Source: a virus (lineage: Duplodnaviria > Caudoviricetes). From it: a stretch of 64,000 nt of DNA. Under the pieces are notes generated by a model, which was given only the letters and a program-made list of their open reading frames with translations, made no database searches and was not told where the DNA came from. The DNA lies in the IMG/VR virus record IMGVR_UViG_3300017917_001910, positions 51,253-115,252 of that record. One strand, given 5' to 3'. The position numbers and the translations under genes are program-made. Each line of letters starts with the position of its first letter. Position 1 is the first letter of the stretch. Positions 4,492 to 64,000 of the stretch are shown one piece after another.

Positions 4492-4983
4492 TCAATAGTT
4501 AAGTATAGCATAATCATAGGTAACGGTAACTGTAATAGTAACAGCTTCTCCGTCATTCGCCCAATCCATTTCATTGAAGTTAGCATCTGAACACCAAGCA
4601 CCTTTTAATACCCATTCTTCTACTTTATCACCTACAGGACCTAACATGTTAAATGTAACGTCTTTTTTATAGAAGTCACTATAACCATCACGACCTGTTA
4701 CGCTTTCATGTCCTAGACGAATCCATTCCATTACTGCTTGAGCTCCTGAAGGAACAATTGGGTCATATAAAGTAATAGTGAGATCTTGCCAACGAGACTT
4801 ACCTTTTACTTTTCTGTCTACGTTAATATGATCTAACGTTGTAACAGTTGATGTTAATTGAGGTCTTCCTGCTGCTTTAATAATAAAAGAAGGAATTCCT
4901 TCAATATACATGAAGAATCTATTTGTTTGTTTTGGTTCCCAACTCTGGAACATTATTTCAGCTGGGTCTAAAATTTCTGGCAT
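4492..4983 (-). CDS. Tail tube protein (T4 gp19-like)
   Basis: EPKQTNRF, WQDLTITLYDP, YKKDVTFNMLGPVG..VEEWVLKGAW, YDYA motifs. Confidence 0.9.
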   Translation of the reverse strand: MPEILDPAEIMFQSWEPKQTNRFFMYIEGIPSFIIKAAGRPQLTSTVTTLDHINVDRKVKGKSRWQDLTITLYDPIVPSGAQAVMEWIRLGHESVTGRDGYSDFYKKDVTFNMLGPVGDKVEEWVLKGAWCSDANFNEMDWANDGEAVTITVTVTYDYAILNY

Positions 4984-62698: not shown

Positions 62699-63175
62699 TT
62701 ATTTACAAATTTGATCTGCTACTCTAACACTATACGCATCATGTGGCTTCCATCTAGCTTCATATCCAGAAGCTTCAACATAACCAACTGCTGAACGTAA
62801 AATCGTATTTGATTGGTATTTTGGATCTTCATTAAAATCTAAATCAATATTTTTAATAAATAATCCGCCATCTCTTAACATATTTGAAACTTCAACAGAA
62901 CGTTCAACTTCACCCCATAATCTAGTATATTTATCTTTAATCTTAGGTAAAATTTCTTTTGCGAAGATTACATGAGCACCTTTACCAGAATCATTTTCAT
63001 TAAAGTGCATAACAACAACCGTAGCATATATAGTGCAGCGTTTACCATTTTGCGAGTCAGTACCAACATACAGTTTAGTGTCTGGCTTAAAACGTAATAT
63101 GTTATTGATATATTCTAATATATCCGTTACATTTTCATGCGTACTTAAAGATTTAAATTGTAGGTTCATAACCAA
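62699..63175 (-). CDS. RNase H-like protein (YkuK/DUF458 family)
   Basis: YVGTDSQ, YATVVV, RLWGEVERS, DLDFN and KP.AY..RVAD motifs. Confidence 0.8.
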   Translation of the reverse strand: MVMNLQFKSLSTHENVTDILEYINNILRFKPDTKLYVGTDSQNGKRCTIYATVVVMHFNENDSGKGAHVIFAKEILPKIKDKYTRLWGEVERSVEVSNMLRDGGLFIKNIDLDFNEDPKYQSNTILRSAVGYVEASGYEARWKPHDAYSVRVADQICK

Positions 63176-63202
63176 TCTCCTTTCTTATAATTATTGTTAT
63201 AG

Positions 63203-63277
63203 TGTGTTTAGTCGGATTCGAACCGATCGCTTTATGTACCACAAACATACGTGCTAACCGCTAACACTATAAACACC
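63203..63277 (-). tRNA. tRNA-His(GTG)
   Basis: Cloverleaf with anticodon arm TATGT-TTGTGGT-ACATA, T-loop TTCGAAT and an encoded G-1; no CCA. Confidence 0.85.
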
Positions 63278-63295
63278 ATGTTAATCAACTTAATG

Positions 63296-63368
63296 TGCTC
63301 TCTAAGAGATTCGAACTCCTATCTCTCGGTCCGTAGCCGAGTACTCTAATCCATTGAGCTAAGAAAGC
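63296..63368 (-). tRNA. tRNA-Arg(ACG)
   Basis: Acceptor stem GCTTTCT/AGAGAGC, anticodon arm CTCGG-CTACGGA-CCGAG, T-loop TTCGAAT. Confidence 0.92.
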
Positions 63369-63373
63369 AAATT

Positions 63374-63480
63374 ATTAGGTCACCGATAACACCTAATGTG
63401 AAGGGTAAAGTTTTGTCTAATTTATCTTACGATACATAGTCGCAGGTTCCCTCTTATTCTTTAACCCGAGTCGGTTTTAA
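63374..63480 (-). ncRNA. Candidate structured RNA of unknown type between two tRNAs
   Basis: Non-coding; several complementary stems. Confidence 0.3.
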
Positions 63481-63484
63481 GTTG

Positions 63485-63557
63485 TAATCCTAACAAGATT
63501 CAAACTTGTATCAAACCCTTAGAAGGGGCGTATGCTATTCCGTTGCACCATAGGATT
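63485..63557 (-). tRNA. tRNA-Arg(TCT)
   Basis: Acceptor stem AATCCTA/TAGGATT, anticodon loop CTTCTAA, T arm ACAAG-TTTGAAT-CTTGT. Confidence 0.85.
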
Positions 63558-63562
63558 AATTT

Positions 63563-63762
63563 AAATAAGTTAATAGCCGCGATTTTGTATCTCTTCTATC
63601 ATTTATCTTTGCCACAACCCGATCATTATTAAGAAACCGACACTCTAGATCTGTTTGTGTTGCTGCTTGTGCGGTTATAACGATGGAATTTAATCAACAT
63701 CTCCCGCAGTAGGTTTTGCAGTCGCGAACTTCCTCTGTTCCCAGCGATAGACTCACTTATTT
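63563..63762 (-). ncRNA. rnpB: Minimal RNase P RNA (catalytic domain with a vestigial S-domain)
   Basis: P1 AAAUAAGU/ACUUAUUU; P2 UCUAUC/GAUAGA; P3 CUG-GGAA-CAG; GAGGAAGUUCGCGA pairs with ACAAAAUCGCGGCU (P4 with bulged U); P5 CUGC/GCAG followed by CAA; P6 AAACC/GGUUU; P15 CACAA/UUGUG; AGAUAAAU before P2. Confidence 0.88.
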
Positions 63763-63764
63763 CG

Positions 63765-63851
63765 TACCCCAAGAGAGATTTGAACTCTCACGCTACTATT
63801 ACTTCGCACCCGCTTCTAAGGCGGGCATGACTACCATTCCATCATTGGGGC
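63765..63851 (-). tRNA. tRNA-Leu(TAG)
   Basis: Acceptor stem GCCCCAA/TTGGGGT, anticodon arm CCCGC-CTTAGAA-GCGGG, long variable arm. Confidence 0.92.
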
Positions 63852-63854
63852 ATA

Positions 63855-64000
63855 ATTCCCACCCTGAGACTCCAGATGAGTAGATTTTAACGGTTTAGTT
63901 TTCTTAAAAACAAACACATTAGTGTCTTACCACATGAAAATATAAATCAACACTACTGGGAGAGGGTGTGTCGCTCCTCTTTGTTCCCACGATGTCCCAC
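63855..64000 (-). ncRNA. 3' part of a candidate large structured RNA, truncated by the window edge
   Basis: No ORF in the track, GC-richer ends, long-range stems CACCCT/AGGGTG and CTCCCAG/CTGGAG plus internal hairpins. Confidence 0.4.

Follow-up and report, generated by a model that had tools for sequence, protein, structure and literature searches.

What occupies the 206-nt gap between two transfer RNA (tRNA) genes at the end of a phage contig? The stretch analyzed here (hereafter, the window) is the final 64 kb of a 115-kb viral record, IMG/VR IMGVR_UViG_3300017917_001910, and ends in a minus-strand tRNA array in which the gap lies between tRNA-Leu(tag) and tRNA-Arg(tct). A prediction made from the sequence alone had placed in it a phage-encoded ribonuclease P (RNase P) RNA of about 200 nt. 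We examined this element (63563..63762, minus strand, 200 nt from the 5' strand of helix P1 to its 3' strand; supported by two covariance models, R1 and R2, and by covariation) by homology search, comparative structure analysis and scans of viral and prokaryotic sequence. Our reading, to which we assign a rough probability of 0.68, is that it would be a functional RNase P ribozyme of the phage, acting with the RnpA protein of the host; homology and structure are shown below by comparison, and from them we infer its activity, its partner and its production as a discrete transcript.

Relatives connect the element to type-A RNase P RNA

The connection to RNase P RNA runs through relatives of the element. 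RF00010, the Rfam model of bacterial type-A RNase P RNA (367 positions; gathering cut-off, 100 bits), matches larger members of the phage family over the whole model: locus L054 at 178.2 bits, L347 at 189.3 and L353 at 102, the latter two being 2 of the 20 loci tested with Rfam in their set. L347 is also 71.5% identical by blastn over 131 nt to a Salmonella sequence annotated as "RNA component of RNase P." The element from the window is itself matched by blastn (nt 100-164, E down to 3e-5) in four Microbacterium phages in culture, at DNA that carries no annotation. Each of these phages, which include A3Wally, Zooman and Big4, has at this place a mini RNase P RNA of 221 nt, flanked on either side by a tRNA gene and with a canonical conserved region I (CR-I). 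The A3Wally element (L428 2388-2608, or MZ150783.1 93852-94072) lies within a tRNA array, where tRNA-Pro(ccg) and tRNA-Pro(cct) are separated by a gap of 216 nt. RF00010 matches these 221 nt at 72 bits (E 2.6e-22), in an alignment that compresses the 140 model positions of the specificity domain into 55 nt and leaves P18 as a 24-position gap.

The same chain can be followed outward from the minimal forms. Model R1, a covariance model built from 40 minimal members, scores the window element at 181.2 bits, A3Wally at 70.4, L347 at 63.1, L353 at 61.5 and L054 at 23.4. Model R2, built without the window element and without L028, L137, L146 and L165, still scores the window element at 172.7 bits (E 1.3e-49; 63555-63767, model positions 1-209), the sole match in the window at E<=0.01, and it matches A3Wally and the Rfam-positive members at about their R1 scores.

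Covariation provided a second line of evidence. In a MAFFT alignment of 40 distinct minimal members, which is blind to structure, 84.3% of cells pair, compared with 35-44% when the partners are slid by 1-3 columns; both sides change in 47 of the 54 pairs, and 0/500 shuffles reach the observed value. A model-based alignment of 44 distinct minimal members gave 90.6% compared with 33-44% for slid partners, 49/54 pairs changing on both sides and a covariation score of 0.689 against a maximum of 0.114, again with none of 500 shuffles reaching the observed value. Pair counts from the model-based alignment are favored because it was fitted to the nested helices of the model; the MAFFT counts are free of this bias, as are those for P4 and P6, which lie outside the model. 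Mean column identity across members is only about 50%, yet whole blocks are invariant. Because the Infernal matches chain in both directions and the helices covary, we consider the element a genuine homologue of the bacterial type-A RNA, maintained by selection. The same two lines of evidence bear out the central claim of the original prediction, that a tRNA cluster of the phage includes an RNase P RNA some 200 nt long, and the covariation in P2, P4, P5 and P6 among homologues, on which that prediction had staked itself beforehand, is present. The comparisons thus support the element's identity as an RNase P RNA and make its function a matter of inference.

A type-A catalytic domain with a remnant of the specificity domain

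Read on the minus strand, the element runs through P1, P2, P3, CR-I with P4, P5, the 5' strand of P6, P7 with a 29-nt remnant, the J5/15 segment and P15; beyond P15 follow an AAACAG loop, P16, P17 with the 3' strand of P6, GGGUU, CR-IV, the 3' strand of P2, CR-V with the 3' strand of P4, and finally P1. The pairings first proposed for P1, P2, P3, P4 with its bulged U, P5, P6, P7 and P16 all lie where they had been drawn. P1 joins 63755..63762 to 63563-63570 in 8 bp (87.4% paired among homologues; 8/8 pairs change on both sides), and P2 joins UCUAUC at 63746..63751 to GAUAGA at 63595-63600 in 6 bp (95.5% paired; 6/6 pairs change on both sides). P3 (63735..63744; 97.7% paired) is a hairpin with a 3-bp stem and a GGAA loop, and in homologues it is longer and variable.

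The CR-I block, GAGGAAGUUCGCGAC (63721..63735), is in register with the Rfam consensus GAGGAAAGUCCGGgC and contains the 5' strand of P4 (63722-63730, with the bulged U). Its counterpart, the CR-V block (63575..63588; Rfam consensus ACAGAACCCGGCUUA), consists of ACAAAA at 63583-63588, present as claimed, and then the 3' strand of P4, UCGCGGCU, at 63575-63582. P4 (63722-30/63575-82) comprises 8 bp and one bulged U, is 99.4% paired and changes on both sides at five of its eight pairs; P5 (63718..63721 with 63663-63666) is 100% paired and does so at all four. In the P6 pseudoknot, AAACC at 63712..63716 reaches the loop of P17, where its partner GGUUU occupies 63634-63638. By a contiguous-pair test, at least 5 contiguous bp are available for P6 in 38/44 distinct homologues, with a mean of 5.5 bp compared with 3.8 for shuffled loops.

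What corresponds to the specificity domain is confined to 63670..63708. It consists of P7 (63704-08/63670-74, UGCGG/CCGCA) and, between the P7 strands, 29 nt made up of GAG, one hairpin (63682-63701) and GUUAUAA. Helices 8 and 9 of this remnant are 86% and 82.8% paired, respectively, and all 8 of their pairs change on both sides. The sequence and the alignments agree with the claim that the specificity domain had been cut to P7 plus one hairpin and that P18 was absent: CR-IV stands 4 nt after P15, and because it follows P15 directly there is no P18.

The P15-P16-P17 block (63613..63659) is supported by pairing counts and by the blastn match to the Microbacterium phage elements. P16 (GAUC/GAUC, 63648-51/63621-24) is 96.5% paired and P17 (63630-46) is 78.7% paired. 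P15 had been drawn with 5 bp (63655-59/63613-17), and in that form it is only partly supported: three of these pairs (63657-59/63613-15; 98.5% paired) covary, and the other two link positions that never vary, in the CAAACAG and GGGUU blocks, and so give comparison nothing to act on. The conserved L15 sequence GGGUU (63616-20) includes the GGU expected at 63619-17, and the CR-IV block AGAUAAAU (Rfam consensus AGAugAAUG) was likewise found at 63601..63608. Taken together, the CR-I, CR-IV and CR-V blocks of the window (GAGGAAGUUCGCGAC, AGAUAAAUGA and ACAAAAUCGCGGCUA) have the order and spacing of the type-A consensus, with two CR-I bases different, and they form invariant columns in 40 homologues. 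The element is a type-A catalytic domain that has kept P1-P6, P15-P17, the L15 GGU and CR-I, CR-IV and CR-V; P18 and the core of the specificity domain have been lost, as the alignments show.

A family of similar elements in phage tRNA arrays

A first scan of viral contigs with the CR-I 14-mer alone gave 116 loci, mostly chance matches, 9 of which had a CR-V block at a suitable distance, and was replaced by two-block patterns. In these, the outer parts of CR-I and CR-V were fixed, the four inner P4 pairs were left free and four spacings were used; a J5/15 block pattern was too strict to serve as a filter. The four scans of viral contigs returned 55, 99, 68 and 41 loci, or 263 matches, and the four free P4 pairs were all complementary in 237 of them, against a chance expectation of about 2%. 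When the same pattern was run on 596 Gb of prokaryote genomes, it gave 56 matches, with P4 complementary in 8. The difference between 237/263 and 8/56 argues that the family is essentially viral.

Several matches were set aside. Most of the 56 in prokaryote genomes are chance matches in which P4 is not complementary. Among the eight with a complementary P4, L390, L425 and L426 resemble coding DNA and were rejected as members; L374 and L415 lie on phage-like contigs with tRNA arrays, and L383, L393 and L394 are archaeal. From the first spacing scan, 2 of the 55 loci (L129 and L155) proved to be chance matches in coding DNA without an R1 match and were excluded from the alignments.

The 237 members represent 182 distinct sequences, on contigs of up to about 500 kb, and the same architecture is found in complete genomes and in many samples. 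By these counts, similar elements that standard annotation misses are present in hundreds of other phages. Association with tRNA genes is common: a tRNA lies within 3 kb of 184/237 members, at least three tRNAs accompany 159/237, and a same-strand tRNA directly abuts 94/237, with 2540 tRNAs across the 237 loci. One of the nine loci from the first scan, L028, is 87.8% identical to the window element over 205 nt. Three further samples also contain the window element on viral contigs; L146 and L165 carry it unchanged and L137 with two bases different, which indicates that the phage recurs across samples.

R1 matched two of the five records searched with it, LR756508.1 and A3Wally; no match was found in the three cultured phages whose capsid proteins are closest to that of the window phage, Microcystis phage Mel-JY01, Flavobacterium phage immuto and Rhodothermus phage RM378. 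LR756508.1 is a 484-kb uncultured "huge phage" record without annotation, whose capsid protein is 51% identical to that of the window; its family member (86-88 bits) lies at 76008-76238 (L433 1501-1729). An RNA ligase gene is located at the end of the tRNA array of the Microbacterium phages. On another viral contig, L366, a short transfer-messenger RNA match (4702-4784, plus strand; 61.5 bits, above the Rfam cut-off) lies beside a family member and tRNAs.

The three archaeal loci are contigs of metagenome-assembled genomes, one from an "uncultured archaeon" and two from Micrarchaeota, with RNase P-like RNAs of about 190-225 nt (L383 3622-3849, L393 3892-4081 and L394 4572-4784, all on the minus strand). 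Their CR-I is the same unusual GAGGAAGUUC as in the phage form. Unlike the phage form, they keep motifs of the specificity-domain type and have no P15-P17 block. In them a small RNase P RNA has been reached in a different way, and they are probably the cells' own.

The window phage and its tRNA array

The record is 59% complete by CheckV. The window has genes for a tail sheath, for a major head protein of the gp23 type, for a portal and a large terminase, and for baseplate proteins. Its capsid protein is closest to its counterparts in Microcystis phage Mel-JY01 (57%) and in Flavobacterium phage immuto (53%). The virion genes establish a phage origin, and together with the capsid relatives they indicate that the source is a T4-like myovirus.

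Four tRNA genes lie on the minus strand at the right end of the window, in an array that continues past the contig end at 64000: tRNA-Leu(tag) (63764..63851; Rfam 53.7 bits), directly upstream of the element on the RNA; tRNA-Arg(tct) (63484..63557), downstream of it; tRNA-Arg(acg) (63295..63368); and tRNA-His(gtg) (63202..63276). All four were called by ARAGORN and by Rfam. The close spacing originally described is correct: the element starts 1-2 nt after tRNA-Leu, which ends at 63764 according to ARAGORN and at 63765 according to Rfam, and P1 ends 5 nt before tRNA-Arg(tct) at 63557.

The protein genes nearest to the element are those for a member of family PF04308 (RNaseH_like), for a thioredoxin and for a phosphoribosyltransferase. 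The first (158 aa, E 1.2e-19; 62699-63175, minus strand) comes straight after the tRNA array, and the other two follow it. Between tRNA-Arg(tct) and tRNA-Arg(acg), a 115-nt spacer (63369-63483, minus strand) is conserved in the related contig L028 and has neither a tRNA call nor an Rfam match. It may be another small RNA. We rejected it as a partial copy of the element, since 73/500 shuffles score equally.

Observations that weigh against the reading

A number of results count against an active RNase P RNA at this locus. Rfam at gathering score finds only the four tRNAs, and no RNase P, in the 64-kb window, and a permissive search (E<=10) of the 651 nt from 63350 to 64000 also finds no RNase P; it adds two chance-level matches (E 6 and 6.4), with none besides tRNA at E<=1. 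Running the Rfam RNase P models on the window was the check put forward with the original prediction, and it returned no match. RF00010 finds nothing on the whole 115-kb record, although its control gave a match in 11/14 genomes, and blastn of the window region against cultured phages returned tRNA matches only. Nor is the single-sequence fold more stable than shuffled sequence (z = -0.49; 59/200 shuffles are as stable). On these direct Rfam and folding tests alone, the RNase P claim would fail. We do not take the Rfam miss as a refutation, because relatives connect the element to RF00010, and the z score is uninformative, because a minimum-free-energy fold cannot represent the P4 and P6 pseudoknots.

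The sequence itself adds further difficulties. A rough pattern test finds neither CR-II nor CR-III in the window element, and finds both in only 4 of the 182 distinct members, so that the reduced state is the rule in the phage family. CR-I departs from the consensus fixed in Rfam at two adjacent positions (AAGUUC versus AAAGUCC); the 3' strand of P4 carries changes that compensate both altered bases. None of the four window tRNAs encodes CCA, as read from the sequence, and with such tRNAs the conserved L15 GGU may lack a partner at cleavage; no CCA-adding enzyme (PF01743) was found in the partial 115-kb record. Finally, because that record is only 59% complete, a protein partner could sit in its unseen part.

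Alternative explanations

RnpA (PF00825) was not found in the 115-kb record, nor in any of five carrier genomes that are 98-100% complete, in agreement with the initial observation, made for the window, that no rnpA-like gene is visible. CR-II and CR-III help to hold the T-loop of tRNA in known enzymes. An alternative that we regard as unlikely builds on both points: the element would be a ribozyme with a changed substrate or partner, active alone or with an unrecognized phage protein and, for want of a specificity domain, acting on RNAs of a broader or another range, for example unusual tRNAs of the phage, tRNA-like structures or RNAs of the host. Loss of the module that reads the T-loop would fit such a change, as would the lack of a known protein partner in 5/5 complete genomes. 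The archaeal type-T literature poses the same question of a missing specificity component (PMC3579882). Against this, the tRNAs around the element are ordinary ones, called in the normal way by ARAGORN and Rfam, and no conserved neighboring protein gene was identified, the nearest open reading frames being those for PF04308, thioredoxin and phosphoribosyltransferase.

The altered CR-I bases at the active-site helix, the missing specificity-domain core and the absence of rnpA from carrier phages could also be accommodated by a decoy or sponge. Such an RNA would keep the RnpA-binding face as a poor catalyst, and would soak up host RnpA or compete for pre-tRNA, thereby shutting down host tRNA maturation or tuning processing; an RNase P-like viral RNA from camelpox virus is reported to be inactive (PMC3001073). 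We consider this quite improbable. A decoy needs no L15 GGU, no AAACAG loop, no P4 bulged U and no P6 pseudoknot, yet all of these are conserved or covary. Moreover, blocking RNase P would harm a phage that relies on its own tRNA array, and members with a complete specificity domain belong to the same family.

A decaying relic, that is, a captured host rnpB gene being lost and without present function, would be far shorter than cellular forms and missed by Rfam, as the element is, but is hardly credible: the helices of 182 distinct sequences are intact through compensatory changes, covariation that weighs strongly against it, blocks stay invariant at about 50% mean column identity, and one architecture is shared by complete genomes and many samples.

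Comparison with known RNase P RNAs and other noncoding RNAs

The closest counterpart is type-A RNase P RNA (RF00010), which has the same P1-P2-P3 arrangement, the same long-range P4 helix with its bulged U, P5, the P6 pseudoknot and a P15-P16-P17 unit with GGU, and in which the spacing of CR-I, CR-IV and CR-V is equal to that in the phage element; the larger phage members pass the RF00010 cut-off. The hallmark of type A is P15-P16-P17 with the GGU of L15, together with the P6 pseudoknot to L17, and the window element has both. The phage element differs in its length (about 200 nt versus a model of 367 positions), in having no P18, P8, P9, P12-P14, CR-II or CR-III, in its CR-I sequence, in being encoded in a phage tRNA array and in having no Rfam match. 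Since three type-A features (the specificity-domain core, P18 and an Rfam score of at least 100 bits) are wanting in the window element, it is best filed as a reduced form.

Archaeal type T shows a like reduction, with the catalytic domain kept and most of the specificity domain gone, and it acts in this state; it too has a small-loop cap, on P10, and a P15 one pair shorter, and it escapes the standard model for its domain of life (PMC3579882). Type T differs in being archaeal, cellular and GC-rich, with a 3-bp P2 and archaeal proteins (PMC3579882), whereas the phage element is derived from type A and has a 6-bp P2 and the P15-P17/P6 block. The window element does not group with type T: it has no non-tRNA Rfam match at E<=1, and its P2 is 6 bp rather than 3. 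On these comparisons the resemblance is one of convergence, not of descent.

Laboratory work has approached a similar minimum, in constructs that include the minimal RNase P RNAs Min 1 and Micro P. Engineered bacterial RNase P RNAs that consist of the type-A catalytic domain without the specificity domain still cleave, and the catalytic domain of the Escherichia coli RNA does so alone with reduced efficiency (PMC5839562). These are laboratory constructs of reduced efficiency, while the phage element is natural, conserved and diversified.

Stable, structured non-tRNA RNAs are familiar among tRNA genes that belong to phages or have been transferred horizontally, as with the species 1 and 2 RNAs of phage T4, which are unrelated to the present element in sequence and fold. 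The same lack of relationship holds for GOLLD, a structured non-tRNA RNA that occurs within a tRNA cluster (PMC6582537). The camelpox RNA is virus encoded and bears some resemblance to RNase P RNA; it differs in coming from a eukaryotic virus, in the looseness of the resemblance, in its reported inactivity on pre-tRNA and in lying outside a tRNA array (PMC3001073), and it is the sole viral precedent that we found in the literature searched. That literature was open access, with subscription papers and supplements outside its scope, so that an earlier report is possible; it contained no report of a phage-encoded RNase P RNA. "RNase P" occurs 0 times in the main text of a survey of huge phages (PMC7162821; supplements outside the scope), and the part of PMC6582537 considered here reports no phage RNase P RNA.

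A proposed mechanism

The region of RNase P RNA that binds RnpA comprises P2/P3, CR-IV and CR-V. Starting from the observed homology, structure, conservation and genomic context, and from the lack of a phage rnpA, we propose that a working phage ribozyme would operate as follows. The element would be transcribed together with the tRNAs of the array and freed by the maturation of its neighbors, through formation of the 3' end of tRNA-Leu on one side and, on the other, RNase P cleavage at the 5' end of tRNA-Arg, 5 nt after P1. The freed RNA, in which the RnpA-binding region is kept, would join host RnpA, and the complex would remove the 5' leaders from the phage's many pre-tRNAs. In this way the element might add to, or replace, host RNase P capacity during infection. 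The original suggestion of a Bacteroidota RnpA as partner is guesswork; judged by capsid protein, the closest cultured phages infect Microcystis and Flavobacterium.

A bolder version, which we put forward tentatively and would not expect to hold in full, is that a class of RNase P ribozyme peculiar to phages has evolved, a natural RNA of bacterial type and about 200 nt, with no specificity domain and no phage RnpA, working alone or with an unrecognized partner. With such a class, the tRNA array might mature independently of the RNase P of the host, for instance after a shut-off of RNA synthesis in the host. On this version a virus would for the first time be known to have a catalytic RNase P, a twin of archaeal type T by convergence.

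Implications

Most members of the family score below the Rfam cut-off, and even in cultured Microbacterium phages the gap between the tRNAs has gone unannotated, which exposes a gap in annotation. Because these carrier phages are in culture, a bench test of the question is directly feasible, and a compact ribozyme of about 200 nt may suit structural work. [quoted passage not shown]
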